This document shows, piece by piece, positions 10,756 to 29,936 of a stretch of 64,000 nucleotides of DNA. Location: assembly GCA_902764415.1 (NCBI GenBank), contig CACWVU010000003.1:3857-67856 (forward strand). The letters run 5' to 3'. Each line of letters begins with the position of its first letter. Positions within the stretch are counted from its first letter, which is position 1. The notes beneath the pieces were generated by a model, which made no database searches, was not told the DNA's origin, and saw nothing but the letters and a program-made list of their open reading frames with translations. The translations under genes and the position numbers were made by a program. Source of the stretch: an uncultured bacterium. GTDB lineage: Bacteria > Verrucomicrobiota > Kiritimatiellia > RFP12 > UBA1067.

Positions 10756-11799
10756 ATGAAGCGTCTGCGGGGATTTGACTACAAGCGGCCATTCTTCTAC
10801 ATGGTGACGCTGAAGCGGCTGCCGGGGCTGGCCGCCTTCTCGCAGATTTCGGACGAGGCGCCGCCGCCGGGATGGTGCCGGACGGGCCCGGCGCCGCAAA
10901 ACGCGCACGGGCGGCCGCGTTACCTTGTCGAGAACGAGATTACCAAGGCGTTTGCGCGGGTGATCCGCGAATTCGCCGCGAAGTGGTGGGGGCTGTGGCC
11001 GATAGACTGCTTTGTGATCATGCCAGATCACATTCACTTGCTCATTCGCATCAAGGATACCGGCGATCAGATGCCGCTCGGGAGCTATGTCTACCAGCTG
11101 ATGAAGGCGCTGGCAGGGGAGTATTGGCGCCTGACGGGGCAGGCGCCGCAAAACGCGGTGCAGAGGACGGGGGCCGGCGCCGCAAAACGGCTCGAACAGG
11201 GCAAGAGTGTTGCAGGGGCGGCCTCGTCCGCCCCGCCCGCCCCTGTCTTCGAGCGAGCCTGGCATGACTGGATCGTGAAGAAGGATGGCCAGCTCGCGGC
11301 CTTTACGCGCTATATTCGCGAGAACCCGGAGCGGGCTTGGCTCCGCCGCGCCAATCGCCGATATTTTGGCAAGGTGCACAAGGTCTCTTTCCTTGGCCGC
11401 GAGTGGTTCGCGTATGGCAACCTTGCGATTCTCGATCTGCCGGTGCTTGTGGCGGTGAAGGGGCACCGCGCAACGAAGCCGGGCACGCCGGAGTGGAATG
11501 CGCTTGTGGATTCTTGCGCGCGCATCGGGCCGGGCGGCGCAGGCGTGGGAACATTCATGAGCCCGCTGGAAAAGGAATGCGGCAACGCCATCGCCAAGGC
11601 GGGTGGGAAGTGGGTTGTGCTTTCGCCCGAGGGCTTCCACGAGCGGTGGCATCCGCCGCGCGAGAAGGAGCGCTTCTGCGCCGAAGGGCGCATGCTCTTC
11701 CTCTCGCTCTGGCCGCCGATGGAACGGCGGCCGCAAAACGCGGAACTTTACCAGCGCTGCCATGAGATGGGGGACGTCGTGGCAGCGGGGCTGGGGTAG
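10756..11799 (+). CDS. RAYT-like HUH tyrosine transposase homologue (IS200/IS605 TnpA superfamily, COG1943-type) with ~155-aa C-terminal extension
   Basis: HUH motif in FVIMPDHIHLLIRI. Catalytic-Tyr helix AWHDWIVKKDGQLAAFTRYIRENPERAWL. The N-terminal GFDYKRPFFYMVT is typical of the family. The C-terminal half (from ~FLGREWFAYGNL) is of unrecognised family. Confidence 0.7.
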   Translation: MKRLRGFDYKRPFFYMVTLKRLPGLAAFSQISDEAPPPGWCRTGPAPQNAHGRPRYLVENEITKAFARVIREFAAKWWGLWPIDCFVIMPDHIHLLIRIKDTGDQMPLGSYVYQLMKALAGEYWRLTGQAPQNAVQRTGAGAAKRLEQGKSVAGAASSAPPAPVFERAWHDWIVKKDGQLAAFTRYIRENPERAWLRRANRRYFGKVHKVSFLGREWFAYGNLAILDLPVLVAVKGHRATKPGTPEWNALVDSCARIGPGGAGVGTFMSPLEKECGNAIAKAGGKWVVLSPEGFHERWHPPREKERFCAEGRMLFLSLWPPMERRPQNAELYQRCHEMGDVVAAGLG

Positions 11800-14900: not shown

Positions 14901-17900
14901 TATATGGAGGCCGGCAAGGACTACTACTTCGGCGGCGCGATCGACGACGCGGGCTGCGTGTGGGTCGATGATGGCGTTGCTGGCTGGGATGCAAAGCGCA
15001 CCGCCTCGCAGCTCGGCGGCTACCAAAGTTGGAACAAGGCAGGCCCCTATACCGTAGCCAAGACCGGCTTCCGCCGCGTGGTCTTCTCCTGCTGGAACGG
15101 TGGCGGCGGCGCCGGCGCGGAATCCGGCGGTTCAGTCACCAGCGAACAGGCGGCGCTCCGCTACGCGGCAGTCGCGAACGGCGCGGCCGCGCCAGGCAAG
15201 GACGACGCCTCCTGGCTTCCCGCGGTCGATCCGGGCGACGGCTCGCTCTTCCGCCTCAGCGTCGGTGTGCTCCGCGGGGTCTCCGTTCTTTCGGCGGTGC
15301 GCGACGGCACGCTCCTCTCCGCACGGGTCGCCGTGGACGCGGCGGCTCCCGGTGAAATAAGCAAGCTCAGGTATGTCTTCGGCGCGACGCACGGCGGGTT
15401 CAACCCTGCGGACTGGGAGGGCGGCTCGCTCGTCGTGTCGTCGCTCCCGGCGACGGCGGCGACGAACGACTACATCGTCGGCATCGCGGCGGACACGCGC
15501 TACGTGCGCTTCTACATCGACGACGACGGCGCGATCGGCTGGTCGGCCACGATTTCGCTCGACTGGGCCGGCGAAACGACGATAGCGGACGACTTCCTCT
15601 TCATCGGGGACCCCGAAGTCCTGTCCGTAGGCGCCGACAAGGCGACCGTTTCGGCGGTTCTCAACGCGCCCGGCGACGGCGCGACGGCGGCCCAGGCCTG
15701 GTTTGTCGTCACCGGCGGCGGCGAGACTTTCACCGTTCCGGCCGGCACGGCCACATCGCGGACGAACCTCACGGTTGAAGTTACCGGTCTTGTGCCAGAG
15801 ACGGAATATTCAATCTGGTGCACTGCGACGAACAACGCCGCCGAGCCCGCCGGCGCCGATACCCCGGCCGCGACCTTCACGACCGGCCCCAAGTTTTCCG
15901 GCTGGACGCCGGGGCAGACCGCGTTCAAGCAGAACGGAAAGTCGTTCTCCGCGACAGTCCCGATTCTCAACCTCGGCGTCGGCACGACGACCCTCTACCT
16001 GATGACGGGACCGGGCAACGGCAACGTCCCGAACATTTCGGCGACTAAGGTCGTGACGGGAACCGGTGAGCAGACGATTACCGCCGACTTCTCCGCCCTG
16101 CCGTGGGGCACGAAGTACTACTACGGGCTCATGATGGTGAGCGGGACGGCCGAGGAGGCCGTCACCAACGGTCCCTTCACCGCCAGCGGAGAGATCTTCA
16201 GCAACAAATCCTTCGAGCTCCAGGACAACTCGACCTACACATGGGTCGGCGGGGCGACGGGCGTCTGGAACGACGCCGGCAACTGGGAGCGGACTGCGGC
16301 GGGGTCGAACGCCACCACGCTCTACGCCGGCTATCCGGTCTACGGCTCGACGGCGGTCTTCGCGACAAATGTCCAGGTGACCGTGACCATTCCCGCAACG
16401 GAGGGAACGACGACGGTCTCCGGCGGCGTTCCGTCCTGGTCGGTCTCGAATGTTAACCTGACCAATATGGATGCGCCGCTTGTCTTCACACCTGGGCCGC
16501 AGGGCCAGACGAGCATCTTCTACATCGTCGGAAGCATCGTCGCGAGCAGGACATCGAACCGGCTTGTCTTTGACAACTGCCTGTGCCAGCTCCCCAAGCT
16601 CCAGGACACAGGCGCAAACGCCTACAATGCCGAGAACGGCGGAAACCTCGTCGTCACCATTACGGGCGGGTCAGAGGCGTCGTTTAGTTCCATTGAGCCG
16701 AACTATCCGGGCGTCAAGCTCCGCATCGAGGACGGATCGCTCGTGAAATCCGGGACTATTTGCGGCGGCTCCGGCAACACGTCTTATCCGGCGGTGATCG
16801 AAATCGAGGACGCGGAGCTGCGCTCGACGGGGTATATCCAGCCTGACTATCGGGGGATTGGCGGTACGGTCTTCCGGTTCCTCGGCCGCAACCCGAAGCT
16901 TCTGTCCAGCTACTACGCGACCAAGAACTCCGACACCCCGTCCGCCTTCGAGTTTGTCGTGCCGGCCGGTGGCTACTTTACGCCGCCGCTCCACTTCTAC
17001 GGCGACAGCATCCTCGCGTCCGGCGGAAGCAAGGCGATTCTGCTACGCGTCTCCGCCGATTCGCCCGCGCTGGCGACGGGTGTCGGGACGACGACCCGAT
17101 TTGTGAATGCGAAGATCGCGGCCGGCTCCTCCACCGCGCGTGTGGACTTCGACCTGCCTACCGGCGTGACGACGTCAACCTACACGGACGCAAACGGCAA
17201 CGCCGACGGCTATGTCGTCACGATTCCGGCCGGCGACGGCCCGGCGCTTTCGGATGTCGCGCTCGCCTACGCGGGCAACGGCAGCTTCGACGTGGCGGGG
17301 TCGGTTGACCCAGGTTCCGCAGGCAGCGCCACCGTGAAGGTCTATCTGGCGGAAGGGGAGGGCGATTTCGCCGCGGCCGCGACGACGAACGTCACCGCCG
17401 CGGGCGCCTTCCGTCTGCGGGTTTCCGGGCTGACGGACGGAACGGCGTATCGCTGGTATGCCGAGGCCGTTTCCGCGTCGGGCAGCCACGCGACCGAACC
17501 TGAAAGCGTCACCTTCCAGTCCGGCATCGCGAGCGTTTCCGCCGCGACGGTGGAGCCGCATCCCGTCTTGAACGGCGATACGGTCTACACGTTCACCGAT
17601 TCGACCGCCCCCGGCTCAATTACTTTCTCGCAGGGCGGCCTCGTCGAAGTCCTCGTCGTCGGTGGCGGCGGCGCGGGCGGCAACAGCGCCGGCGGCGGCG
17701 GCGGCGGCGGCGCGTTCCTCCATCGCCGTGCCTTCGTTCCCGCCGGAACGTATGCGGTCACCGTCGGCAAGGGCGGCTACAACGCGACGGTAGCCAACAA
17801 CGTTTTGCCGGTCGATGCGGAATCCTCCGCGCTCGGCGCTCTCTTCGTCGCGGCCGGCGGTGGCGCGGGCGGATGCTGGGATATCCCGAGCGGCACGTCG

Positions 17901-20900
17901 CTCGGCGGCAGCGCCGGCGGCAACAGCGACAAGGTTGGAACGCCCACCACCTCCGGCATGTATCCCTTCGGACACGATGGCGGCGTGGTGCCGGTCTTCG
18001 GCAATAAATTTTTCGCGGCCGGCGGCGGCGGCGCGGGCGGCGTCGGCGGCGACGGGCGCATCTGGAACAATGTCTACATTGGCGGCTATGGCGGCGACGG
18101 CGTTGCCTGCGACATCACCGGCGAGAGCGTCGTCTACGCGGCTGGCGGCGGCGGTGGCGCGGGTACGGCGGGCTTTATCAGCGGCGCCGCGGGGCTTGGC
18201 GGTGTTCCCGGCTGCGGCCCTGCGGAACAGGTGCGCGTGCAGGATGCGCCCGCCAACACCGGCGCGGGCGGCGGCGGCGGCAACTTTGGCTCCAACTACT
18301 TGAAGCAGGGCGGTGCGGGCGGCAGCGGCATCGTCGTGGTGCGCGTCCTGAGCGGCGCGGACGACGGCACGGATGCGCTCGACGTGAAGACGCTCACGGC
18401 GGATGTCGTCGGCGATTCCGCGACGATCTCGGGCTCGCTCCTCAATCTCGGCGCGGGCGCGACGTCCGCGAACGTGTGGCTGGTCGTGACGGGCGGCGGC
18501 GAGACGCGGAGCATCGACCTCGGCACGACGAATGCCGTCCCTGCGGCTTTCACCTATACGGTCGAGGGGCTTGACTACGGCACGGCATATACGTTCTACT
18601 TCACGGCGACGAACAACTTCGGCGTCGGCGCGGGCGAGGCGTCAGGCGCGGCTTCGGCGGCGACGCCCGGTAACGAACTCTACTATTCGGAAATCTCCTT
18701 CCCGACCGCGCCGGCGACGCCGCTCGAGAACTTCCCGGTGCTTTTGCGGATTTCCTCCACGTCGCCGGTTGGCTTCTCCTACGCGAACTGCCCGACGGCG
18801 GACAAGCTCTGGGTTCTCGACGACACCGGCGCAGTGCTGCCGTTCGAGGTCGATACCTGGAACCCCGAGGGCGAATCGCTCCTCTGGGTCTCGGTGCCTA
18901 ACTTCTCCGCTGACACGACGCTCACGCTGCAGTGGGCCGTCGACGGGCACTCGCGTCCGGCAGTCCCGGCGGCCACGGAAGTCTGGTCGCGCGCGAACTA
19001 CGTTGGCGTCTGGCACATGAACGAGCTCCTTACGGACGGCACCGGCACCTATACGCCGGATGCCACCGTTAACGGCTGGAAGGCCTACAAGGCGAACGAG
19101 GCCGACGCCTTCCCGCTTGCGGACACAGTATCGTCCTACGCCGCCTCCACGCCGCCGACGGGCCGCGCGATGATCAGCCAGCTCGGCGACGACACCTTCA
19201 CGACGGGCGGCTTCCTCGTTCCGGCGTCCCTCACCTCGGAAACGACGATCGGGCCGTTCTCGATCTCCATCTTCGAGGCCTACGTCCAACCGTACAACAA
19301 CAAGTACTCCAGTCTCGTCTCCTTTGCGTCGGCCTACAACACGCTGGCCAGCATGCGGATCAAGCTGGACACCTGCTGGATCTACAACGGCGGCAGCAAC
19401 CCGTCGTTCAGCCTGACCGCCGACGGCCAGGCCTACAGCGCCTGGCGCCACCTCGGCGGCGTGTGGGACGCCGTCCCCTACGGCTACCTCAACGGCGAGG
19501 CGAGGTACCTGAACCAGAAGAACTGGGACGTCTCCAAGACGCTCTCGAACGGCATCGGCCTTGGCACGCTCACCGGCCATACGGAGACGCAGCAGGGCTA
19601 CATGGACGAAGTCCGCATCCGCAACGCCGCCTCGTCCGCCGACTGGATGGCCGCCGAATACGCCACGGTGATGGATCATGGCTACGCGGTCTTCGAGGAC
19701 GCCGAAATCGACACGGGCGCGCCGCGCGTCGGCAAGCCGGCCATCGTCGAGGCATCCGGGACGAGCGCGACGCTCGCCGCGACCGTTGTGAAGCTCGGCG
19801 ACAATGCGACGGAAGCCGACATCTGGCTCGTCCTCGAGGGCGGAACGAAAACACTGACCTATCCCGTCGGGAAGGCGACGGCGCCGCTCCAGTCCTTCAC
19901 GAACACGGTCACCGGCCTTGCCAACTCCACCGTCTACACCGCGTACTTCACGGTGACGAACAATGCCGAGCCCGCCGCCAGCTCCGACTCCAAGACGGTA
20001 TCGTTCGAGACCGAGACCTTGCCGGCCAACTGGAACACCGGCTCGTTTGCGCTCTCCGGCAGCGGGAAGTCGCTTACGACATCCATCGACGTTACCGACC
20101 TCGGCACCGGCACGACAACGCTCTATCTCATGACGGGCCCCGGTTGGAATAGCGAGAACATCGTCTCCGCAACGAGTGTCCTCACCAACACGGGCGTGCA
20201 TTCGTTTACCCTTGACTACCCGGACATGCCGTGGGGAAAATCGGTCTACGTTTCGTTCCTGCTCGTGAACGGCACGGAGCAGAACGCGATCACCAACGGC
20301 CCCTATACCGCAAACGGCCAGGCGTTCTACAACAAGTACGTCACGTTCCAGGACAACTCGACCTACACCTGGATCGGCGGCGCGGCGGGCGACTGGAACG
20401 ACCCGACCAAGTGGGAGCTGACGACGAAGGGCAGCGCTGCGGGTGAGACGCCGGCCGGCTACCCGGTTTATGGCTCGACGGCATACTTCAAGACGAACAT
20501 CGCAGTGACCGTCGCGATTCCCGCTACGGCCGGCACCTCGGTTTCGGGCGGCACGCCGTGCTGGTATGTCGGCTCGCTCAACATGAGCAACATGTCCGCG
20601 CCGCTCACGTTCGTCTCGACTTCAATCGCAGACGAATGCCGCATCCAGGCGGGCGGCATCAGCGCGGACAACGCGAACCTCGACGTCACCTTTGATGGTT
20701 GCTACTTCAACACAGGCTCGGCGCCGCACATCGGTGCCAACGCAACTGTTGACGGGCGCAATACCGTCTTGACGTTCAAGAACGGCGCGCGCGGTTATTT
20801 CAACCAGCTCTGGGTCGACAAGCCGGCCGCGAAGGTGCGCGTCCTGAGCGGGTCGCTTCTTGAAGACGGCTACCTGCTGTGCGGCACCAATGTCGCGGGC

Positions 20901-22505
20901 GACGAGAACAAGCCAGTGCTTGAAGTCGAGGACGCTGAATACATAAACAGGCAGAATTCGGTTGCCTTTGACTACAACAACACTACCAACGGCTTGCTGA
21001 TCCGCCTTCTTGGTAGGCACCCGCGCGTCTCATCCCCGAACTTCAATCTGGCCCGTGCCTCCGGCGGCTGCATCGAGTTTGTCGTCCCGGCGGGTGGCTA
21101 TGCGGATGCGCCAATCCATTTCCTCTCGAACGGCGAGTTCAACTCGGCCAAGAATGCGCCGATCCGGCTTAGAGTCTCGCCTGACTCGCCGGCGCTTAAG
21201 GCCGGGTTTGCCACGACGACGCGCCTTGTGGATGCGAAGCTCGTCGTCGTGTCCGAGGAGTCCGCGGCGGTTTCGTTCGAGCTGCCGTCGGGCGTGACGA
21301 CGTCGCGCCACACCAACGAGGACGGCCACGAGGAGGGCTATGACTGCTCGATTCCCGCGGGGACCGGGCCGACGCTCTCCGATGTCAGGGTCGTCGCGTG
21401 CGGCGACGCCTCCTTCACGGTCAACGGCACGGTGGCCACGCACAACGACGAGGCTGCCACCATCAGGGCCTACGTTGCCGCGGACGGTGGCGACTTCGCG
21501 GCAAAGGGCGCCGCGGTTGCCGCCGCCGGACAGTTTGCCGTCAAGGCCAAGAACCTGACGGCCGGAACCAGGTATCGCTGGTATATCGAGGCCACGACGG
21601 CCTCCGGCTCGCACTGCACCGAGGCGCAGGAGCTGACGTTCCGTCCCGGCAAGGCGTCCGTTGCGTCGGCGAGCGAGGAGCCGATTCTGGTGGGCGGCGA
21701 AAAGGTCTATGTCTTCACCAATTCCACCGAGGCCGGCTCGATCACCTTCGCGCAGGGCGGCCTCGTCGAGGTGCTGGTCATCGGCGGCGGCGGCGCGGGC
21801 GGCAACGCCATGGGCGGCGGCGGCGGCGCGGGCGCGTTCCTGCACCGCTACGACTTCATCCCGGCCGGCACCTACGAGGTGACCGTCGGCAAGGGCGGCT
21901 ACAACACCGGCAACAACCAGGGCAGCGATGCGGTTCCGGCGGAGGCCTCTTCGATCGGCGACGTCTTCGTGGCGCCGGGCGGCGGCGCGGGCGGACGCTG
22001 GGGCGCGCAGGGCAAGGTGCAGGGCGGCAGCGCCGGCGGCAACAGCGGCAACGCCAATGTTCCGGCGGTCGGCATCGGCATCTATCCGCTCGGCCGCGAC
22101 GGCGGCTCGCAGACAACCGGCAACGCGTATATCGGCGCGGGCGGCGGCGGCGCAGGCAGCGCGGGACATGACTCCCGGACATGGGGCGGCATTTACTACG
22201 GCGGGCGCGGCGGCGACGGCGTCGCCTGCGACATCACCGGCGTGAGCGTCGTCTACGCGGCCGGCGGCGGCGGCGGCGCGGGCACGGTGGGCTACATCCC
22301 CGGCTCGGCGGGACTGGGCGGCGTCCGCGGCTGCGGCAGAAGCGACACAGAAATCTTCAACGCGCCCGACAACACCGGCTCCGGCGGCGGCGGCGGCAGC
22401 TATCAGACAGGCACGTACCAAATGGGCGGCGCGGGCGGCAGCGGCATCGTCGTCATCCGTGTCAAGGAGTTCTTCCGGCCCGGTACGGTGTACTACATCC
22501 GGTAG
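11913..22505 (+). CDS. giant secreted DUF2341/LamG/Fn3-like/glycine-rich-domain protein (3,530 aa)
   Basis: Sec signal MKVSKLLSVVVAAASTLFVALSARA. Three DUF2341-type modules (..NFPVLVRL..ESLVWVSVP..) are each followed by a LamG-type jelly roll ending (G)Y(L/M)DE(A/V)RIRN..EY. Five Fn3-like units end in TATNN/TVTNN. A PA14-like stretch lies at ~14.7-15.1 kb. There are two NSTYTW(V/I)GGA.G.WND..(N/K)WE units and two glycine-rich domains. It is an uninterrupted ORF with high G/C-ending codon use. Confidence 0.9.
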   Translation: MKVSKLLSVVVAAASTLFVALSARAEFTCELSFLQAPSTALANFPVLVRLAEDAPTGFSYADCPTASCIWFTDANDDAIPCDVDTWDDEGESLVWVSVPSLSSSATIKMHWDAAGAPAGLPASSQVWSLANYVGVWHMNELVYDSTKEKHYTPDSSASGWNAYKVTQSDAVPAPVTTATGVTANPTPLTGTAMNIAYGAGKDNAAFGGFAVPMAQTSSFTLGGSGFTLSAIVNSQQVANDGRCRVIAFGAAYNEMANLSIGCDNIYVMGGTNHLKANPRGQTDWVYSAGVFNSPRSKIYADGVCLSGSNEGNPSLASLSLTKGIGLGCFIDGKNTLDGYLDEARIRNVASTGEWVAEEYKTVTTANYVSFGEVETGVEVLRLGPVAVSDVTPTNAVVTGELRTLGEGATSADVWLVYTDGGATTNRIALGPKSGEPSALSVTLENLAEKTTYTCWFTATNNLSAGADSATASFKTKRIPTGTGIYECELSFPSAPATPLENFPVLVRLANDAPEGFLYEDCPTAAHLWFTDGYDTVLPFEADTWNTAGESLVWVSVPSFSSATKITMHWSSDADSVEDSPDAREVWTRAGYNAVWHFSGSAAESVNGLNASVTKGSPTYDGNASYPGPLGKTLWLANNSALGYAVDPAWTTLGANASLTISCLARPVTASLGGYARMVCCQTSWEVKHGYTFAVHSPISKITLGSSDSSELALNSGTGNWSGWPSTDWVHLTARYDNTAGAIFKDGQTAISGAIKTLATPEGVLYLGANGDGNQRFWVGGLDEIRIRAAASSDDWVAAEYATMATANYVSFGDVEEAAAGVSLEFGTPSVSSVSATGAIISARLKSLGENATSANLWVVVSGFGQTRTYPLVPATGPKVVEATLSGLQPGADWTAYLTATNNASPAVGTNSAAVVFSTDSDAGGLGGVGLYQAVTTSSAIPADAAANWDIAASGIVTLGPLAMRCALSSGTHQWQATDGSSYQWSNNTGFGYAGCMYMEAGKDYYFGGAIDDAGCVWVDDGVAGWDAKRTASQLGGYQSWNKAGPYTVAKTGFRRVVFSCWNGGGGAGAESGGSVTSEQAALRYAAVANGAAAPGKDDASWLPAVDPGDGSLFRLSVGVLRGVSVLSAVRDGTLLSARVAVDAAAPGEISKLRYVFGATHGGFNPADWEGGSLVVSSLPATAATNDYIVGIAADTRYVRFYIDDDGAIGWSATISLDWAGETTIADDFLFIGDPEVLSVGADKATVSAVLNAPGDGATAAQAWFVVTGGGETFTVPAGTATSRTNLTVEVTGLVPETEYSIWCTATNNAAEPAGADTPAATFTTGPKFSGWTPGQTAFKQNGKSFSATVPILNLGVGTTTLYLMTGPGNGNVPNISATKVVTGTGEQTITADFSALPWGTKYYYGLMMVSGTAEEAVTNGPFTASGEIFSNKSFELQDNSTYTWVGGATGVWNDAGNWERTAAGSNATTLYAGYPVYGSTAVFATNVQVTVTIPATEGTTTVSGGVPSWSVSNVNLTNMDAPLVFTPGPQGQTSIFYIVGSIVASRTSNRLVFDNCLCQLPKLQDTGANAYNAENGGNLVVTITGGSEASFSSIEPNYPGVKLRIEDGSLVKSGTICGGSGNTSYPAVIEIEDAELRSTGYIQPDYRGIGGTVFRFLGRNPKLLSSYYATKNSDTPSAFEFVVPAGGYFTPPLHFYGDSILASGGSKAILLRVSADSPALATGVGTTTRFVNAKIAAGSSTARVDFDLPTGVTTSTYTDANGNADGYVVTIPAGDGPALSDVALAYAGNGSFDVAGSVDPGSAGSATVKVYLAEGEGDFAAAATTNVTAAGAFRLRVSGLTDGTAYRWYAEAVSASGSHATEPESVTFQSGIASVSAATVEPHPVLNGDTVYTFTDSTAPGSITFSQGGLVEVLVVGGGGAGGNSAGGGGGGGAFLHRRAFVPAGTYAVTVGKGGYNATVANNVLPVDAESSALGALFVAAGGGAGGCWDIPSGTSLGGSAGGNSDKVGTPTTSGMYPFGHDGGVVPVFGNKFFAAGGGGAGGVGGDGRIWNNVYIGGYGGDGVACDITGESVVYAAGGGGGAGTAGFISGAAGLGGVPGCGPAEQVRVQDAPANTGAGGGGGNFGSNYLKQGGAGGSGIVVVRVLSGADDGTDALDVKTLTADVVGDSATISGSLLNLGAGATSANVWLVVTGGGETRSIDLGTTNAVPAAFTYTVEGLDYGTAYTFYFTATNNFGVGAGEASGAASAATPGNELYYSEISFPTAPATPLENFPVLLRISSTSPVGFSYANCPTADKLWVLDDTGAVLPFEVDTWNPEGESLLWVSVPNFSADTTLTLQWAVDGHSRPAVPAATEVWSRANYVGVWHMNELLTDGTGTYTPDATVNGWKAYKANEADAFPLADTVSSYAASTPPTGRAMISQLGDDTFTTGGFLVPASLTSETTIGPFSISIFEAYVQPYNNKYSSLVSFASAYNTLASMRIKLDTCWIYNGGSNPSFSLTADGQAYSAWRHLGGVWDAVPYGYLNGEARYLNQKNWDVSKTLSNGIGLGTLTGHTETQQGYMDEVRIRNAASSADWMAAEYATVMDHGYAVFEDAEIDTGAPRVGKPAIVEASGTSATLAATVVKLGDNATEADIWLVLEGGTKTLTYPVGKATAPLQSFTNTVTGLANSTVYTAYFTVTNNAEPAASSDSKTVSFETETLPANWNTGSFALSGSGKSLTTSIDVTDLGTGTTTLYLMTGPGWNSENIVSATSVLTNTGVHSFTLDYPDMPWGKSVYVSFLLVNGTEQNAITNGPYTANGQAFYNKYVTFQDNSTYTWIGGAAGDWNDPTKWELTTKGSAAGETPAGYPVYGSTAYFKTNIAVTVAIPATAGTSVSGGTPCWYVGSLNMSNMSAPLTFVSTSIADECRIQAGGISADNANLDVTFDGCYFNTGSAPHIGANATVDGRNTVLTFKNGARGYFNQLWVDKPAAKVRVLSGSLLEDGYLLCGTNVAGDENKPVLEVEDAEYINRQNSVAFDYNNTTNGLLIRLLGRHPRVSSPNFNLARASGGCIEFVVPAGGYADAPIHFLSNGEFNSAKNAPIRLRVSPDSPALKAGFATTTRLVDAKLVVVSEESAAVSFELPSGVTTSRHTNEDGHEEGYDCSIPAGTGPTLSDVRVVACGDASFTVNGTVATHNDEAATIRAYVAADGGDFAAKGAAVAAAGQFAVKAKNLTAGTRYRWYIEATTASGSHCTEAQELTFRPGKASVASASEEPILVGGEKVYVFTNSTEAGSITFAQGGLVEVLVIGGGGAGGNAMGGGGGAGAFLHRYDFIPAGTYEVTVGKGGYNTGNNQGSDAVPAEASSIGDVFVAPGGGAGGRWGAQGKVQGGSAGGNSGNANVPAVGIGIYPLGRDGGSQTTGNAYIGAGGGGAGSAGHDSRTWGGIYYGGRGGDGVACDITGVSVVYAAGGGGGAGTVGYIPGSAGLGGVRGCGRSDTEIFNAPDNTGSGGGGGSYQTGTYQMGGAGGSGIVVIRVKEFFRPGTVYYIR
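11988..13000 (+). other. DUF2341 + LamG module 1 of the 3,530-aa protein
   Basis: FTCELSFLQAPSTALANFPVLVRLAEDAP..GESLVWVSVPSL..IKMHW, then GVWHMNE...GYLDEARIRNVASTGEWVAEEYKTV. Confidence 0.7.
13365..14322 (+). other. DUF2341 + LamG module 2
   Basis: YECELSFPSAPATPLENFPVLVRLANDAP..GESLVWVSVPSF..ITMHW, then AVWHFSG...GGLDEIRIRAAASSDDWVAAEYATM. Confidence 0.7.
17634..18355 (+). other. glycine-rich domain 1 (phage-tail-fibre-like 'glycine-rich domain' family)
   Basis: GGLVEVLVVGGGGAGGNSAGGGGGGGAFLHRRAFVPAGTYAVTVGKGGYN ... AAGGGGGAG ... NTGAGGGGGN ... GGAGGSGIVVVRV. Confidence 0.65.
18679..19670 (+). other. DUF2341 + LamG module 3
   Basis: YYSEISFPTAPATPLENFPVLLRISSTSP..GESLLWVSVPNF..LTLQW, then GVWHMNE...GYMDEVRIRNAASSADWMAAEYATV. 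Confidence 0.7.
21754..22470 (+). other. glycine-rich domain 2 (paralogue of 17634-18355)
   Basis: GGLVEVLVIGGGGAGGNAMGGGGGAGAFLHRYDFIPAGTYEVTVGKGGYN ... NTGSGGGGGS ... GGAGGSGIVVIRV. It is collinear with domain 1. Confidence 0.65.
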
Positions 22506-22608: not shown

Positions 22609-22687
22609 ATGGGGCTCAAATGGGACCAAAGGGACAAACATGACCAGCCAGTCGCTTAAGTCGCTTTTGTCGCTCTCGTCCCTTGAA
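22551..22687. repeat. two exact 59-nt direct repeats (22551-22609 and 22629-22687, period 78 nt)
   Basis: aagggacaaacatgaccagccagtcgcttaagtcgcttttgtcgctctcgtcccttgaa occurs twice, identical by eye. The second copy ends 10 nt before ATG 22698. Confidence 0.85.
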
Positions 22688-22697
22688 GAGGTCCCCA

Positions 22698-23384
22698 ATG
22701 GCTGAAGTTCCGAAGATCGTTTTGCCGCATGGCGGCTACCGCAACCTCATCGTCTACCGCAAGAGCGACGTGATCTACCAGGGCACCGTCGCATTCTGCC
22801 GCCGCTTTCTGCCGGCGCGCGGCGACCGCACGGTCGACCAGATGACGCAGGCCGCGCGCTCCTGCAAGCAGAACATCGCCGAAGGGTCGGCGGCGAGCGG
22901 CACCTCGAAGGAGACGGAGATTAAGCTGACCAACGTCGCCCGGGCGACGCTTGACGAACTCCTCGAAGACTATCTCGACTACCTGAAGTCACATGGCGCC
23001 GGGGAATGGCCGGCCGCCAGCGAGAAGAAGGCGGCGGCGCGCGACTTCGCGAAGAGCCACGCCGACTGGGACGACTGGAAGCCGTTCTTCGAGTCGCGCT
23101 CGGCGGAGACGCTCTGCAATCTGATGATCGTCGTCATCCAGCAGACGAAATACCTGCTCGACAAGATGATTGCCGCGCAGGAAGAGGACTTCAAGCTGCA
23201 TGGCGGCGTCCGCGAGCGGATGCACGCGGCGCGAACCGCCGCGCGCGGCGAAGACTGGGACGGGGCGATCTATTCGCGGCTTGACGGCGCGGCGTCCGCC
23301 GAAGAGCTCGCCGCTCGCGCCGCCGAGATGCGCGAGCGCATATCCAAGGCAGTCTGGGGCATAAAGCAGCGGAAGGGCTGGTAG
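22698..23384 (+). CDS. four-helix-bundle protein ('23S rRNA intervening-sequence protein' family) with C-terminal suffix domain
   Basis: YRNLIVYRKSDVIYQGTVAFCRRF...QMTQAARSCKQNIAEGSAASGTSKETEIKLTNVARATLDELLEDYLDYL is the typical core of this family. ATG 22698 is preferred over the TTG at 22683, which lies inside the repeat. Confidence 0.8.
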   Translation: MAEVPKIVLPHGGYRNLIVYRKSDVIYQGTVAFCRRFLPARGDRTVDQMTQAARSCKQNIAEGSAASGTSKETEIKLTNVARATLDELLEDYLDYLKSHGAGEWPAASEKKAAARDFAKSHADWDDWKPFFESRSAETLCNLMIVVIQQTKYLLDKMIAAQEEDFKLHGGVRERMHAARTAARGEDWDGAIYSRLDGAASAEELAARAAEMRERISKAVWGIKQRKGW

Positions 23385-23650: not shown

Positions 23651-26600
23651 ATGAAGATCAACTATCGCTTTTTCGCCTTGGCTTGCGCTGCCGCCTGCTG
23701 TCCGCTTGCGGGCTTTGCCGCGGCTGCGGCGGCCACGTTTTCGTTTGGCGAGGTCAAGGTCGACTGCGAGGAGCGCGACGGCTGGAAGCTTGCGTTTTCC
23801 CGCGAAGTCGCGCCTGATGGCGCGGAGATCGCGAAGATCGCGCTCGACTGCGCGGAGGCGAAGACGCCGCCGAAGACGCGGCTGTCGCTCGCCGTCCCGC
23901 AGGTCGGCATGGACTACGCCTGGAACGTCAACACTGGCGACTGCGGCATGCGCCCGAACTGGGGCGCGAACTCGAGCACCGAGGTCGCGCAGGGGATGCC
24001 GGTCTTCGTCTACTTCGACGGCAACGACACGAGCCATTTCTCCGTCGCGGCCGAGGAGTGCGTGCACCACCTCAACTACAAGGGCGGCGTCCGCGAGGAG
24101 GGGAGCCTCCTCGAGATCGGCATCGGCTGGTTCGAGACGCCCGAGGCCCCGATCTCGCACTACGAGACGCGCGTGAGGTTCGACGCGCGCGCGAGGGGAT
24201 TCGCCGACGCGGTGCGCGAGGCCGTCGCGTGGATCGAGCGGACGGCGGGCATCGCGCCGTGCCGCGTTCCCGCGTCCGCGTGCGACCCGCTCTACTCGAG
24301 CTGGTACTGCTTCCACCAGGACGTCCACGCCGCCGACATCGAGGCGGAGCTCGCGATCGCGGCGAAGCTCGGCATGAAGACGTTCATCCTCGACGACGGT
24401 TGGCAAATGGAGGATACGAGCCGCGGTTATGCGTTCTGCGGCGACTGGCAGGTGGCGCCGCGGCTTTTCCCGGACATGGCCGCGCACGTGAAGAGAGTGC
24501 AGGACATGGGGGTAAAGTACATGGTGTGGTACTCCGTCCCGTTCGTCGGGCAGAAGAGCGTGAACTACGAGCGGTTCAAGGGCAAGTACCTCTACGAGAA
24601 CCCCGGCATCGGCGCCGCCGTCCTCGACCCGCGCTTTCCGGAGGTGAGGCAGTTCCTCGTCGATACGTACGTGAAGGCGCTCAAGGACTGGAACATCGAC
24701 GGCTTCAAACTTGACTTTATTGATTCGTTCGCGATCTGGGGAGAGGATCCTGCCGCAAAGGAGAATTACGCAGGGCGCGACATCAAGTCGCTTCCGCTCG
24801 CGGTAGACGCCCTGATGACCGAGGTCAAGAACGCGCTTACGGCGATAAAGCCCGACATTCTCGTCGAGTTCCGCCAGAGCTACGTCGGACCCGCGATCAG
24901 GAAGTACGGCAACATGCTGCGCGTGGGCGACTGCCCCGGCAACCTCCGCCGCAACCGCTTCGCGATCGCGAACCTGCGCCTCGCGTCGGGCGGGACGGCG
25001 GTCCATTCCGACATGCTGGAGTGGAACTTCGCGGACAGCCCCGAGCACGCCGCGCTCTACGTGATCAACTCCATGTTCGGCGTCGTGCAGTATTCGGTCA
25101 TGCTCCGCGACGCGCCGAAGGAGCACCTCGCGATGGTGGAGAAGTGGATCAAGTTCTCGCAGGACCACCGCGACACTCTGCTCAACGGCAAGTTCACGCC
25201 GCGCCATCCCGAGCTCCAGTATCCCGTCATCGAGGCCGAGGGCGACGACGAGGTCGTCATCGGGCTCTACGACGACGGCCGCGTAGTGGACGTTCCCGAG
25301 GGGAAGAGGACGTTCGTGATGAACGCGTCGGGCAAGGACTCCTTCGTCGTCCGCCGCGGCGGAAAGCTCTCCGAAGTCGCCTGCAAGTCGGGCGACTGGA
25401 TCGAGTTCCGCGCGCCGCCGCCGCCCGAGACCGACTGGATGGCCGGCAAGATCGGCGCGTTTGTCCACTACTGGCCGGGCCTCGCCGGGCACGAGGCGAA
25501 GAAGTTCGACGTCGAGCAGCTGAAGCGCGACCTCGTCGCCGCGGGCGTGGACTACTTCTTCCTCACGCTCGGCCAGAACGCGGGGACGTACATCGCGCCC
25601 AACGAAACCTACGATCGCCTCACGGGCCACAAGCGCGGCGAGGCGACGGCGGCCTGCAATGGTCGCGACATTCCGCGTGAAGTCATCGAGGCGCTCAAGG
25701 GCACCGGCATCAAGTTCTGCCTCTACCTTCCCTGCCGCGGCCCCGGGCGCGCGCCGGAGGACTGCGAGAAGCTGGGCTACATCCCTTCGCGCGACGACCA
25801 CTCGGACTGCACCGACACGCCCGAGGGCCTCGAGAACTGGTGCAAGGTCATCGCGGAGTGGAGCGAGCGCTACGGCCGCGACGTCCACGCCTGGTGGTTC
25901 GACGGCGCGGGCGGCCCCGGCTTCGGCGGCGACCGCGAGACGCTGGCGATCCGCGCCGCCGCGCGCCGCGGCAATCCCGACGCGGTCTGCGCCTTTGCGA
26001 AGAAGATCGTCGACTACGACCACGGCTTCCGCTGGGTGCTGGGCATGGACCGCAAGGAGGGCCGCGAGCTCGATACGCTCTTCACCGACTACAACTGCCG
26101 CGGCGAGGCGAGGCACGACGTGTGGGCGGGATGCGACTTCACGGCCGGCGAGGCGACTAACCCGATGCGCCTTCCCTGCGACGGACGCGAGGTGCTTGGC
26201 CGCCAGTGGTTCACGCTCACCTACCTGGGCGGCATGTGGGGATGGACGGACGTCCGCCACACCGACAATGTCTGGTCTGACTGGATGAAGCGCGTCATTC
26301 CGCTCGGCGCGAGCGTCTGCTTCGACGTCGGCTTCGTCCACGAGGACGGCAGGATGTCGCCGGCGCAGGTCGCGCAGCTCAGGCGCATCGTCGCGCTCGC
26401 GCGCGGCAAACCTGACGCGGAGACCGCCGCGCGGCACGAGCGCGAGACGAAGGTCGTCAGCGCGCTCAGGGACGTCGAGCTGGCGTATGGACGCGGATGC
26501 GAGAATCCGCTCTGTCTTGAAGACAGGGACACGGGCGACGCCGAGATCCGCGCCGCGCTCGACAAGGACGGCGCGGTGTTCGTGAACGAGCGCGCGAAGG

Positions 26601-27247
26601 CGACGGTGATCGGAAGCGATCTCGTGCTGAAGCAGGGGCAGGTGTTCATCGGCGACAAGGATTCGAAGTTCGCCGCGCCGGAAGGGAAGCGCGTCACGGT
26701 GAAGCTGGCGGACGGCGTGATGTTCGAGGGCGGCACCTGGAAGGGCGTCGACTTCGACCTCAGGGGCTGCAGGCACTTCATCTTCCGCCGCGTGTGGACG
26801 GAGGACTGCCGCGTGCTCACGGACGGCGCGTCAGAGTGCGTGATAGAATACCTCACATCGCCGAATCCGACACCGAAGCAGGTTTTCGAGATAATCTGCT
26901 CGGGGGAGGAAGCATCACACAGAGTCACAGAGACACAGAGGGCTAGGGGCCTGTGTGCGGCGCTGTGTATGAAACTCCGATCCGTGGGGCTCTCGCTACC
27001 GCTCCGCAGAATGGACTATGCTTCGCATTTGACATTCGTCATTACACGGACACTCTTACCGTGTTTTATATCTGCGGCTTCGCCGCAGGGGGCTCTTATG
27101 GGGGTCTGGGGGCTGCGCCCCCAGTTAAAAAAAACTTTGCGTTCTTTGTGTTCTTTGCGGCTGACAAAACCTGCCGTGGATCTGAATTGGGGTTGCGAGA
27201 TGCGAAGCTGTGGAGCGGTAGCGAGAACCCCAACCATCGGAGTTTAA
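23651..27247 (+). CDS. secreted two-domain glycosidase: clan GH-D (GH27/GH36-like) alpha-galactosidase-type barrel + second GH29-like domain; the last ~110 codons are translated repeat element (true 3' end uncertain)
   Basis: Signal MKINYRFFALACAAACCPLAGFAAA. Clan GH-D motifs are FILDDGWQ, GFKLDFIDSF and NMLRVGDCP. The second domain runs from ~25.43 kb (WMAGKIGAFVHYWPG ... HAWWFDGAGG). The ORF reads through outer IR 26916-26941 and element copy B to TAA 27245-27247. Confidence 0.75.
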   Translation: MKINYRFFALACAAACCPLAGFAAAAAATFSFGEVKVDCEERDGWKLAFSREVAPDGAEIAKIALDCAEAKTPPKTRLSLAVPQVGMDYAWNVNTGDCGMRPNWGANSSTEVAQGMPVFVYFDGNDTSHFSVAAEECVHHLNYKGGVREEGSLLEIGIGWFETPEAPISHYETRVRFDARARGFADAVREAVAWIERTAGIAPCRVPASACDPLYSSWYCFHQDVHAADIEAELAIAAKLGMKTFILDDGWQMEDTSRGYAFCGDWQVAPRLFPDMAAHVKRVQDMGVKYMVWYSVPFVGQKSVNYERFKGKYLYENPGIGAAVLDPRFPEVRQFLVDTYVKALKDWNIDGFKLDFIDSFAIWGEDPAAKENYAGRDIKSLPLAVDALMTEVKNALTAIKPDILVEFRQSYVGPAIRKYGNMLRVGDCPGNLRRNRFAIANLRLASGGTAVHSDMLEWNFADSPEHAALYVINSMFGVVQYSVMLRDAPKEHLAMVEKWIKFSQDHRDTLLNGKFTPRHPELQYPVIEAEGDDEVVIGLYDDGRVVDVPEGKRTFVMNASGKDSFVVRRGGKLSEVACKSGDWIEFRAPPPPETDWMAGKIGAFVHYWPGLAGHEAKKFDVEQLKRDLVAAGVDYFFLTLGQNAGTYIAPNETYDRLTGHKRGEATAACNGRDIPREVIEALKGTGIKFCLYLPCRGPGRAPEDCEKLGYIPSRDDHSDCTDTPEGLENWCKVIAEWSERYGRDVHAWWFDGAGGPGFGGDRETLAIRAAARRGNPDAVCAFAKKIVDYDHGFRWVLGMDRKEGRELDTLFTDYNCRGEARHDVWAGCDFTAGEATNPMRLPCDGREVLGRQWFTLTYLGGMWGWTDVRHTDNVWSDWMKRVIPLGASVCFDVGFVHEDGRMSPAQVAQLRRIVALARGKPDAETAARHERETKVVSALRDVELAYGRGCENPLCLEDRDTGDAEIRAALDKDGAVFVNERAKATVIGSDLVLKQGQVFIGDKDSKFAAPEGKRVTVKLADGVMFEGGTWKGVDFDLRGCRHFIFRRVWTEDCRVLTDGASECVIEYLTSPNPTPKQVFEIICSGEEASHRVTETQRARGLCAALCMKLRSVGLSLPLRRMDYASHLTFVITRTLLPCFISAASPQGALMGVWGLRPQLKKTLRSLCSLRLTKPAVDLNWGCEMRSCGAVARTPTIGV

Positions 27248-27275
27248 AACCTCTGTGTCTCCGTGCCTCTGTGTG
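26916..27275. repeat. nested-palindrome repeat element copy B (26971-27245) enclosed by an outer 26-nt inverted repeat of CACAGAG-type words
   Basis: The outer arms are cacacagagtcacagagacacagagg (26916-26941) and cctctgtgtctccgtgcctctgtgtg (27250-27275), complementary at 24 of 26 positions. The inner element is collinear with copy A (1451-1797) and lacks its 72-nt segment. Confidence 0.85.
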
Positions 27276-27333
27276 AACAAAATCCGTCAAGGTTTTAAAG
27301 AACTAAACAATCAAACAGAAAGGAAAACAAAAC

Positions 27334-28559: not shown

Positions 28560-29936
28560 ATGAGAAACCTCTGCGGAACGATCCTTGCCGCGGCGATGCT
28601 CGCGGCAGGGATCGGATGCGGTCGGCGCGGCGACGAGGCCAGCTTCGCGACGTTCGACGCCAGGGCGAGGGCGGGCGAGAGCCTTACCGTCGCCTACTTC
28701 GGCTGCTCGCTCATGTGGAGCGCAAACGCCTCCGAGCCGAACGAGACCGGGTTCCGCGGGCTCATGTCGCGCTATCTGGAGAAGCGGTATCCCAAGGCGC
28801 ATTTCCGCTTTGTGGATGCCTCGGTCGGCGGCACGGGCGCGATGCTGGGCGTGTTTCGTCTCGAAAGGGACGTCCTGTCCAGGCAGCCGGATCTCGTGTT
28901 CCTCGACTTCGCGTGCAACGACGGCTGGGACGGCAAGGCGCTGGCGACGACCTGCTGCTACGAGTCAATCGTCCGGCGACTGGTCGGCGACGGCATTCCC
29001 GTGATGCAGATGTTCTTCACCTTCCGGTTCTGGCTCGAGGGGTCGCTTGAGCCGGGAGCCGAGACGGCCGTCCACCAGCGGATAGTGCCGTACCGCCGCC
29101 TTGCGGAGGAGTACGCGACCGGCGTCGGCGACGTGTACCGGGACTCGCCGCTCGTCGCCGACCTGAAAAGCGGCAAGACCACGTTCGACGCCGTGTGGCC
29201 GATCGACGGCGGGCACCCCGCCGACCTCGGCTACCACTACTTCGCGGAAGCCGCCTTTGCCGGCTTCGAGCGGGCGGTCAGGGAGGGAACAGTCTGCCGC
29301 GTTCCGGAAAAGCCGGTGTTCGGGACGGTGGCGGATGTGCAAAGACTTGATTTTAGCCACAACCACCTTCGCCATCCGCCTACGCAAAGACTACGGCGGA
29401 CAAGAGGCTACGGTGGTCAAGAAGAACGCAAAGAACGCAAAGGGATTTGCGGCAATGGATTTGTGGCTGGCGCAAACACAAATTCCTGGCGCAGGGCGCT
29501 TACGTACCGCACTTCGCTTTGGTACGACGGGCTTTCCTCGCGGTGGATGGACGATGTGCTGGCATTCTCCGGCACGAACCGCGCGCCCGTGTCCGTGGAG
29601 GCGGCGGGCAACATGCTGGGCGTGTTCGGCGAGGCGGACGAGAACGCGCTGACGGCGGCGATTCTCTGCGACGGGGAGAAGATCGCGGACTTCAACGCCT
29701 ACCACAACGCCGGCAAGGGGCGGCTCTTCTTCTGGCGGGACGTGCTGCTGAAGGATTATGCGAAAGGGGAGTCCGCGGCGCATAAATGGATCGTCGACCC
29801 CGTCCCCGACGGCAAGGGAGAGTTCCGGATCGGCGCCATCTGCACGGCGACGATCAAGCCGGAGGCGGAATTCGCCGGCGACGCCGGCTCAGATTTCGAC
29901 ATCTCCGCCATCGACCATGCCCGCGGCGTGAAGTAA
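28560..29936 (+). CDS. SGNH/GDSL-family hydrolase (lipoprotein-like signal) + C-terminal beta-rich domain, with in-frame repeat insertion in the linker
   Basis: Signal/lipobox MRNLCGTILAAAMLAAGIGCG. SGNH blocks are VAYFGCSLMWS, DLVFLDFACNDG and WPIDGGHPADLGY. ATG 28560 lies 5 nt after the upstream TGA, with gaagg as SD. Confidence 0.8.
   Translation: MRNLCGTILAAAMLAAGIGCGRRGDEASFATFDARARAGESLTVAYFGCSLMWSANASEPNETGFRGLMSRYLEKRYPKAHFRFVDASVGGTGAMLGVFRLERDVLSRQPDLVFLDFACNDGWDGKALATTCCYESIVRRLVGDGIPVMQMFFTFRFWLEGSLEPGAETAVHQRIVPYRRLAEEYATGVGDVYRDSPLVADLKSGKTTFDAVWPIDGGHPADLGYHYFAEAAFAGFERAVREGTVCRVPEKPVFGTVADVQRLDFSHNHLRHPPTQRLRRTRGYGGQEERKERKGICGNGFVAGANTNSWRRALTYRTSLWYDGLSSRWMDDVLAFSGTNRAPVSVEAAGNMLGVFGEADENALTAAILCDGEKIADFNAYHNAGKGRLFFWRDVLLKDYAKGESAAHKWIVDPVPDGKGEFRIGAICTATIKPEAEFAGDAGSDFDISAIDHARGVK
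29355..29468 (+). repeat. composite palindromic repeat inserted in frame in the SGNH gene linker
   Basis: The inverted repeat agccacaa (29355-29362) / ttgtggct (29461-29468) spans 114 nt, or 38 codons. The interior aagaacgcaaagaacgcaaagg matches the reverse complement of elements A/B at 21 of 22 nt. It is followed by tttgcgg, and ctacggcgg/ctacggtgg is a direct repeat. It translates ..HNHLRHPPTQRLRRTRGYGGQEERKERKGICGNGFVA.. Confidence 0.7.

Follow-up and report, generated by a model that had tools for sequence, protein, structure and literature searches.

The 64,000-nucleotide stretch analyzed here (the window; positions 3,857 to 67,856 of contig CACWVU010000003.1) comes from a rumen Kiritimatiellae genome and contains two copies of a palindromic element, one of which, copy B, forms the end of an open reading frame (ORF) for a glycosidase. 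[quoted passage not shown] We assign this reading a probability of roughly 0.58. Part of the evidence is structural variation, read from assembled contigs of related strains: modules of the element are present, absent, inverted, truncated or swapped among strains whose flanking genes are more than 90% identical. The initial annotation had left three readings side by side, namely a MITE- or REP-like mobile element selected to be translatable, a structured RNA and a genuine C-terminal tag. The MITE- or REP-like reading is the best fit, with the qualification that the element is a nested composite of modules and lacks target-site duplications.

Both copies are real. Copy A (1451-1797, + strand, 347 nt) lies between the stop codon of a GH36 alpha-galactosidase gene (1409-1411) and the start of a gene for an 1860-aa glycosidase (1836). 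Copy B (26971-27245, + strand, 275 nt) has the ends GAAACTCCGAT...ATCGGAGTTT, and its arms contain CTAC (26996-26999) and GTAG (27218-27221). The two copies are 91.7% identical over 254 nt (i.e., about 92%) and also have a common 3' end (BLAST). In a search of the 64-kb window with a profile made from five variants, they are the only two full copies (nhmmer E = 4e-103 and 2e-93), and a 25-nt core pattern occurs twice, where 0.00 occurrences are expected. A segmental duplication of a gene and its spacer was rejected, since the identity between A and B begins and ends at the ends of the terminal inverted repeats (TIRs). These TIRs, initially described as approximately 35-45 nt long, measure 43 nt in copy B (26967-27009 and 27208-27250) and are 84% complementary. 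The outer inverted repeat around copy B, for which 26 nt had been claimed, measures 27 nt (26915-26941 and 27250-27276; 93% complementary). An inner stem, tccacgg/ccgtgga, that had been regarded as common to the element is not conserved between strain variants.

The length difference between the copies consists of one block: positions 1698-1773 of copy A stand in place of TAGC in copy B, a net difference of 72 nt. The proposal that this difference preserves the reading frame holds only downstream of a 1-nt indel in the 5' third of the element, by which the +1 frame of B runs on as the +0 frame of A. The G+C content of the element is 54-59%. Both strands of both copies are predicted to fold far more stably than shuffled sequences, and the recommended folding check gave, for copy B, -138.7 kcal/mol on the + strand (z = -9.3 versus shuffled controls) and -127.6 kcal/mol on the - strand (z = -10.7). 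Strong folding on both strands is the expected behaviour of DNA palindromes. We also considered a diversity-generating retroelement, prompted by an Avd-like gene at 22683-23384, whose 233-aa product has a sub-threshold match to the 23S_rRNA_IVP family (a four-helix-bundle, Avd-like family). There is no reverse transcriptase nearby and the differences between A and B are not adenine-only, so this candidate was rejected.

The element is built from at least four types of module. The first is an outer hairpin, whose stem consists of three 8-nt CACAGAGN units. At copy B, the left arm of this outer inverted repeat (26915-26941, + strand) is composed of such units and is translated within the glycosidase tail, and the right arm (27250-27276, + strand) is placed by the inverted-repeat measurement. 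The second type is a terminal-inverted-repeat layer of approximately 40 nt (GAAACTCCGAT...CTGYGGAGCGGTAGCGAGA), with the arm sequences CTGYGGAGCGGTAGCGAGARCCCC...ATCGGAGTTTC. The third is the core, which combines a GC hairpin with an A-run and with 9-nt GCAAAGAAC-type repeats. In copy B, the core (27100-27162, + strand) has a GGGGGTCTGGGGGC-TGC-GCCCCCAG hairpin and, besides the A-run, repeats of 9 nt that are of the TTTGCGTTC type (on the - strand, GCAAAGAAC), and the same module is found at 1579-1641 in copy A. The fourth type is a small array of GAA-triloop hairpins, for which either arm has one fixed site (GCGG^TAG^CGAG). The block in copy A (1698-1773, + strand) is of this type; it is GC-rich and 76 nt long, contains GAA-triloop mini-hairpins, and takes the place of TAGC at the site in the 3' arm. 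The modules occur alone or nested, and in either order, at three intergenic loci, which we call A, B and C. Two insert sequences, the +72 and +30 blocks, reappear at the GTAG/CTAC site in different arms and loci.

Locus B is the spacer between the glycosidase gene and a GFO oxidoreductase gene, and across related assemblies it has four architectures. In the first (V1; the window and L001-006), copy B is nested in the outer repeats. In the second (V2; L127, from a Joint Genome Institute (JGI) metagenome, and L133, from GCA_017502825.1), the outer repeats enclose the same 308-nt segment in reversed orientation over its full length. This segment (26942-27249 in the window) consists of a 28-nt leader, copy B and AAAA. 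The V2 segments align solely as the reverse complement (291/308 positions in L127 and 281/308 in L133), with flanks that are collinear at 96% and 95%, respectively, and L133 has lost one 9-nt unit from the core. In the third architecture (V3; L130-132), a 60-nt inner module replaces the 93-nt one, and the loop of the GC hairpin is flipped from TGC to GCA. In the fourth (V4; L128 and L129), the 5' half is gone, including the 5' arm, and there is a net gain of 30 nt at GCGG^TAG^CGAG, the position of the 72-nt block of copy A. It is important to consider whether the inversion could be an assembly artefact. We judge this unlikely, given that two independent assemblies agree and have private single-nucleotide polymorphisms (SNPs) in common. 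We also infer it from the length of the outer repeats, as 27 nt is less than the k-mer size with which assemblers typically finish (k141 appears in some contig names).

The two orientations at locus B lead to the main rival of our reading, which is a programmed invertible switch, or partial-intergenic inverton. Here, a site-specific recombinase would flip the 308-nt segment between the 27-nt CACAGAG repeats, and the flip would toggle the C-terminus of the glycosidase and/or transcription into the downstream operon, which encodes the GFO oxidoreductase, a lipase and a 10,451-aa surface protein. The 93% complementarity of the repeats is in keeping with this idea, as is the occurrence of both orientations in nature with collinear flanks. 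Moreover, the ORF is open both ways, a TAG in the window copy reading GAG in the inverted lineage, the same type of repeat encloses the core module at another locus (locus A), and a giant surface protein is a typical target of phase variation. Partial-intergenic and intragenic invertons that recode proteins have been documented (10.1101/2023.03.11.532203). However, the private SNPs common to the two inverted contigs mean that a single ancestral inversion in one sublineage suffices, and repeats of 27 nt could give rare inversions via homologous recombination or template switching. Among the genes of the window, no recombinase domain of the tyrosine or serine type was found, and neither a sigma-70 promoter consensus nor an intrinsic terminator lies inside either copy; the invertible segment as a whole also lacks a promoter consensus. 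In addition, half of the segment is deleted in other strains, the 86%-identical relative discussed below lacks the segment yet keeps the operon, and the two alternative tails are junk-like. Because the inverted state tracks a sublineage and because neither an invertase nor a promoter was found, we retain the switch only as the main rival and not as the explanation, and consider it unlikely.

The giant ORF of this operon (30570-61925, 10,451 aa) has dozens of DxDxDG (thrombospondin type-3-like) calcium-binding repeats as well as internal repeats of approximately 3 kb. Its gene calls vary by assembly: 10,437 aa, 6,238 aa, or split. Another long ORF, of 3,530 aa, is located at 11913-22505.

Locus A is also variable among strains. 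It has a 273-nt form without the 72-nt block in L138-140 and a form with a third inner module, i.e., with the core module swapped, in L137. L141, L177 and L178 lack the TIR element at this locus and have an element of approximately 130 nt, in which CACAGAG arms surround the A-run and the 9-mer repeats together with the GC hairpin. Locus C (L179:6934-7338), upstream of GH36, has a TIR-bounded copy of approximately 405 nt in the opposite orientation, with ends that match perfectly over 11 nt (GAAACTCCGAT / ATCGGAGTTTC). In this copy, the CACAGAG hairpin is inside the TIR element, which is the reverse of the nesting at locus B, and both insert blocks are present, one per arm, at the GTAG/CTAC site. 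In a window-type strain (L134:275-303), the gene downstream is the same, but only 27 nt of spacer precede it and the gene upstream is a different one. Thus, the situation that was initially named as refuting the proposal, with two copies only and no signatures of mobility, does not apply: there is a third locus, and there are presence/absence, inversion and nesting polymorphisms. The target-site duplications that were to be looked for are absent from all three loci, whose flanks read ...GTGAAT | AAACAC (A), ...GTGTAT | AAACCT (B) and ...TGGTTT | TTAGAA (C). A metagenome scan whose query was a 22-mer of one core variant, which is absent from the other variants, returned one locus (locus B in another strain), through which the inversion came to light.

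The glycosidase ORF at locus B (23651-27247, + strand, 1198 aa) belongs to the melibiase family and runs through copy B. The observation in the initial annotation that it has no stop before the element and continues for approximately 110 codons therefore stands, with a measured tail of approximately 116 codons. The similarity of the 1198-aa protein to its 86%-identical ortholog stops near residue 1081 (approximately 26893-26896), so that the final codons are a read-through of repeat DNA. The closest ortholog outside the 90%-identity cluster (P0002, 86% identical) has the C-terminus '...PTPRQVFEIK*'; its next gene follows after 37 nt, and this spacer contains no repeat of any kind. Within the 90% cluster, proteins of 1198, 1202, 1187 and 1145 aa have four mutually unrelated tails, because the underlying DNA has been inverted, swapped or truncated. 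Sequences in the tail region include LSLPLR and TLLPCFISAASPQGALMGVWGLRPQLK. No Pfam domain was found in the tail, and when the element was translated in six frames and compared with 5.8 billion proteins, only the cluster of the 1198-aa protein was matched, with no other translated copies. These observations refute the reading of the tail as a genuine C-terminal tag, and the conserved domain that orthologous glycosidases might have shared with it does not exist in the tailless ortholog or across strains. Judging from these sequence comparisons, the tail is read-through of the repeat and not a protein domain; it is strain-specific and probably arose by accident.

The element had also been described as poor in stop codons in several frames. 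This depletion is real, but modest. Two of the six frames are fully open in each copy, versus approximately 0.27 in dinucleotide shuffles (P = 0.03-0.04). The total number of stops is 8 in copy A, where 16.6 are expected (P = 0.001), and 13 in copy B, where 17.3 are expected (P = 0.09). The recorded length changes are +72, +30, -33 and -9, with an additional -34 at the untranslated locus A, and the units involved in them are 9-nt periodic. Inspection by eye finds no stop codon in any of the six frames of GCAAAGAAC, and none in most frames of CACAGAGN. A period of 9 nt and units without stops suffice to explain why the lengths change by multiples of three, and they also account for the greater part of the missing stops, so that no selection on the tail has to be assumed. 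Filtering during an earlier residence in ORFs could have played some part, as copy A is depleted despite being untranslated and the frame at locus B is open whichever way the segment lies.

Related modules are found within other genes. In the window, the tandem GCAAAGAAC 9-mer has 7 matches at 4 loci, versus 0.2 matches expected, and two of these loci are inside genes. A related palindrome of approximately 64 nt (AGCCGCAAAGAAC...TTTGCGGCT; 9727-9790, + strand) is in frame within a GH92 gene (8566-10740) and encodes a loop, SRKERKEHKDFADSASFAAKK, that is absent from the solved homolog 7ZGM. In GH92 proteins that are more than 90% identical over the rest of their sequence, the position of this loop is empty or is filled with other insertions. 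More generally, three or four loop positions of these GH92 orthologs vary through insertions that keep the frame, the DNA of these insertions forms hairpins or palindromes of tandem units, and a peptide of the type SPTPT[Q/R]NSN occurs at two different positions among the homologs. Similarly, a palindromic stretch with GCAAAGAAC repeats (29390-29470, + strand) is in frame within a GDSL lipase gene (28560-29936). The lipase is 458, 448, 445 or 438 aa long among strains, and the variation, which is confined to the repeat-bearing palindromic stretch, consists of in-frame indels of 9, 30 and 60 nt.

These insertions raise the possibility that the palindromic modules are translated under selection, in the style of Rickettsia palindromic elements (RPEs). 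According to this explanation, the family was filtered or selected for in-frame insertion, and the tail and loops are tolerated or useful variation. It would account for the depletion of stops even in the untranslated copy A, and for the fact that the length changes at locus B (-33, -9 and +30) are all multiples of 3. The strain-variable palindromic insertions in the GH92 loops and the lipase, with SPTPT[Q/R]NSN at two positions, also agree with it, and RPEs provide a precedent (PMC10969869). However, the 9-nt unit alone accounts for the multiples of 3, and the untranslated locus A has a change of -34. Furthermore, the tails have no common sequence between variants and resemble no known domain, and both copy A and the copy at locus C are entirely untranslated. 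We therefore regard selection on translated modules as unlikely. For the part of the original proposal that had the element 'selected to be translatable', 9-nt-periodic, stop-free units are the better explanation; small related modules do lie in frame within real genes.

A third alternative is a structured or cis-acting RNA, in which the closing helix and inner hairpins would act as a 3' stabilizer or terminator of the glycosidase mRNA, or as a leader of the downstream gene. The extreme predicted stability (z = -9 to -11) would suit such an RNA, as would the positions of the element, since all three loci are between a stop codon and the next start, 35-90 nt upstream of that start. In addition, the closing helix tolerates G-U pairs on the + strand, the viral CACAGAG hairpins described below often come after long open stretches, and structures of this kind are known from MITE and REP transcripts (PMC10969869). 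On the other hand, both strands fold about equally, as DNA palindromes would. Rfam gave no match at gathering thresholds in the whole window, and relaxed thresholds gave only chance-level matches (E >= 2), namely JUMPstart with 14.9 bits versus 35 (E = 2.1) and GA-cis with 14.5 versus 34.7. The RNAalifold covariation term is +1.19, a single two-sided change was observed between the two locus types, and variants disrupt the ACACGG/CCGTGT helix. Thus, the Rfam and covariation checks lend no support to an RNA. The element also occurs in either orientation relative to its neighbors, has no terminator-like U-tract and is dispensable in relatives. Given these data, the structured-RNA reading is unsupported, and we consider it quite unlikely. 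As a separate observation, the arms at 26990-27005 and 27210-27225 both contain GAGCGGTAGCGAG, which is like the enterobacterial ops/JUMPstart core GGCGGTAG. We judged this likeness to be due to chance, and rejected a JUMPstart identity for the ops-like GCGGTAG, given the score of 14.9 bits mentioned above.

Returning to our preferred reading of a composite palindromic repeat, a candidate for the mobilizing enzyme is encoded in the window. The gene at 10756-11799 (+ strand, 347 aa) directly follows the GH92 gene and resembles a REP-associated tyrosine transposase (RAYT), with an N-terminal Y1/HUH region (REP-associated / IS200-like) and a C-terminal region that is weakly DprA-like. Its product matches the NCBIfam model REP_Tyr_transpos (NF047646) with E = 8.8e-9 and 35 bits, which is under the cutoff of 80, and the Pfam model Y1_Tnp only weakly (E = 0.004). 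There are 1058 relatives of this protein in the representative library. In an alignment of 26 homologs, H92, H94, Y186 and N190 are invariant and correspond to the HUH motif and the catalytic-Tyr motif. The RAYT model is matched at E <= 0.001 by 25 of these 26 homologs, and their profile matches ISDra2 TnpA (2XO6, E = 6e-5) and, in the C-terminal part, DprA (3UQZ, E = 2e-4). The gene is 98% conserved in the related strains L177 and L178. A single-sequence AlphaFold model has a mean confidence (pLDDT) of 47.6 and was too poor for a fold search. This protein may be the enzyme that mobilizes the repeats.

Y1 enzymes, such as those of IS200/IS605 and RAYTs, act on single-stranded hairpins, recognize a tetranucleotide such as GTAG and cause no target duplication. 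The recurrent insertions at the GTAG site and the absence of duplications fit these general properties. We propose a mechanism in which the modules would move or be copied as hairpin-forming single-stranded DNA, without target duplication, possibly mobilized by the RAYT-like Y1/HUH protein. The palindromes may, in addition, be what causes 9-nt units to slip, hairpin loops to flip and the segment between the 27-nt outer repeats to invert. At locus B, the insertion probably removed the stop codon of the glycosidase. As the units have few stops and a 9-nt period, the ORF reads on for 63-120 codons, and the outcome is a different, apparently meaningless tail for each structural variant.

The outer hairpin is not confined to the strains considered so far. 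The outer-repeat motif CACAGAGNCACAGAGNCNCAGAGG occurs in 34 stretches of IMG/VR contigs (L142-L175), where, by a rough estimate, well under one is expected by chance. A complementary arm is present at most 220 nt away for 23 of 41 CACAGAG arms in IMG/VR, with loops of 8-97 nt, and many of these viral hairpins are directly after a long open stretch, often at gene ends. Their stem, CCACAGAGrCACAGAGrCACAGAGG ... CCTCTGTGyCTCTGTGyCTCTGTGG, consists of three CACAGAGN units (e.g., L143:9821-9905, L150:6342-6440 and L164:4966-5109). Neither of the TIR arm patterns has a match in the viral contigs, and an exact-sequence search of the literature for the CACAGAG arm gave no match. This (CACAGAG)3 hairpin, with a stem conserved over many unrelated viral contigs, may thus be a widespread and undescribed hairpin family. 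Separately, the GC hairpin pattern GGGGGTCTGGGGGCNNNGCCCCCAG (22 specified bases) matches more than 119 stretches of genome contigs, mostly from Streptomyces and other actinomycetes and some from Rhodobacteraceae. None of the 119 listed loci (L007-L125) has the TIR element, which suggests that these matches represent an unrelated GC-hairpin repeat of high-G+C actinobacterial and Rhodobacteraceae genomes.

It is important to emphasize that a number of observations weigh against the interpretation of the element as a mobile palindromic repeat. The three documented loci are all within approximately 30 kb, and local recombination or gene conversion could account for this spread without transposition. 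There is no target-site duplication, and no clean pair of empty and filled sites marks the ends of the element. Its arms are not themselves short palindromes, unlike those of classical REPs, and the six-frame protein search found no further translated copies. The stop depletion, and the openness of both orientations in the frame in which the glycosidase enters the element, are not fully explained by chance. As to the enzyme, the RAYT-like gene scores under the curated cutoff and its tie to the repeats is circumstantial. Palindromic repeats that might flank this gene are absent from its spacers of 15 nt upstream and 113 nt downstream, the nearest related palindrome being approximately 1 kb upstream, inside the GH92 gene. 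Finally, tblastn searches for the RAYT-like protein gave no matches at the viral loci with CACAGAG hairpins.

A more far-reaching explanation would combine several of these observations into a system of rumen Kiritimatiellae. In this system, a domesticated Y1/HUH-DprA-like protein would insert hairpin modules that are stop-free and have a period of 8 to 9 nt. The modules would enter specific sites as single-stranded DNA, in surface loops of secreted glycosidases as well as in hairpin loops and at gene ends, and this would generate strain-specific in-frame variation as well as invertible segments. Such a system would be RPE-like with an identifiable enzyme, and might possibly include a true inversion switch upstream of the giant adhesin operon. 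We present this idea as speculation that has some chance of being correct, but is improbable.

Our analysis has consequences for annotation, as the ~116 residues at the end of this alpha-galactosidase-like protein come from read-through of the repeat, and the same applies to strain-variable loops in neighboring enzymes. Gene callers and protein clustering take such read-through and loops for real sequence. Palindromic interspersed repeats appear to be undescribed in Kiritimatiellota; of the papers listed by a literature search on this phylum and palindromic sequences, none concerns such repeats. The locus also offers a compact natural series in which the growth and movement of these repeats could be studied. 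The series includes empty, small, nested, inverted and truncated forms, and with them come a site of repeated insertion and a candidate Y1 enzyme.

Several known systems can be compared with the element. Like the bacterial MITEs Correia, ERIC, QMITE and Chunjie, it is shorter than 500 bp, has TIRs and a stable stem-loop, is intergenic, and occurs in size variants, truncated copies and ORF fusions. According to the criteria in a review, which also states that direct repeats decay in old copies (PMC10969869), the element qualifies in its length (275-347 nt, or approximately 405 nt at locus C) and in its TIRs (43-nt arms). However, there are no flanking direct repeats at the three copies, the G+C content is not AT-rich as in MITEs, and the TIRs exceed the typical 4-30 bp. 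No insertion sequence (IS) was found in the window, and no parent IS with matching ends was found. Strict membership among MITEs fails because of the lack of duplication, the base composition and the lack of a known parent IS.

The geometry of a partial-intergenic inverton is formally present, as a segment of approximately 300 bp lies between 27-nt inverted repeats, occurs in both orientations and extends into the 3' end of an ORF, the C-terminus of which is thereby recoded. The differences from known invertons are that no invertase or internal promoter was found, and that the orientation tracks the sublineage and was seen to differ only between assemblies. With RPEs, the element shares palindromic repeats that are translated as in-frame additions to unrelated enzymes, here a glycosidase tail, a GH92 loop and a lipase segment. 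It differs from them in lineage, in sequence, in its architecture of 9-nt tandem units, in having no conserved RPE-like peptide, and in that the large element is a C-terminal read-through and not an internal insertion.

The remaining comparison is with REPs, BIMEs, REP doublets forming hairpins (REPINs) and their RAYTs. In contrast to REPIN-RAYT systems, the arms of the element are approximately 40 nt long and not self-palindromic, and besides the two copies in the window, one further locus is known, from another strain. The score of the RAYT-like gene is sub-threshold, repeats do not flank this gene, and its product has a DprA-like C-terminal region in addition. Classical REPINs are also far smaller than the element (275-400 nt) and have a shallower nesting. 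Given the copies known so far, the arms and the sub-threshold RAYT, the element is not proven to be a REPIN in the strict sense. What the element has in common with these systems is that it consists of mosaics of hairpin-forming extragenic modules, with GTAG/CTAC in the arms and inverted doublets that form one long hairpin. As in these systems, its sites are just after gene ends and lack target-site duplications, and a Y1/HUH RAYT-like gene with conserved HUH and Tyr is present in the region.

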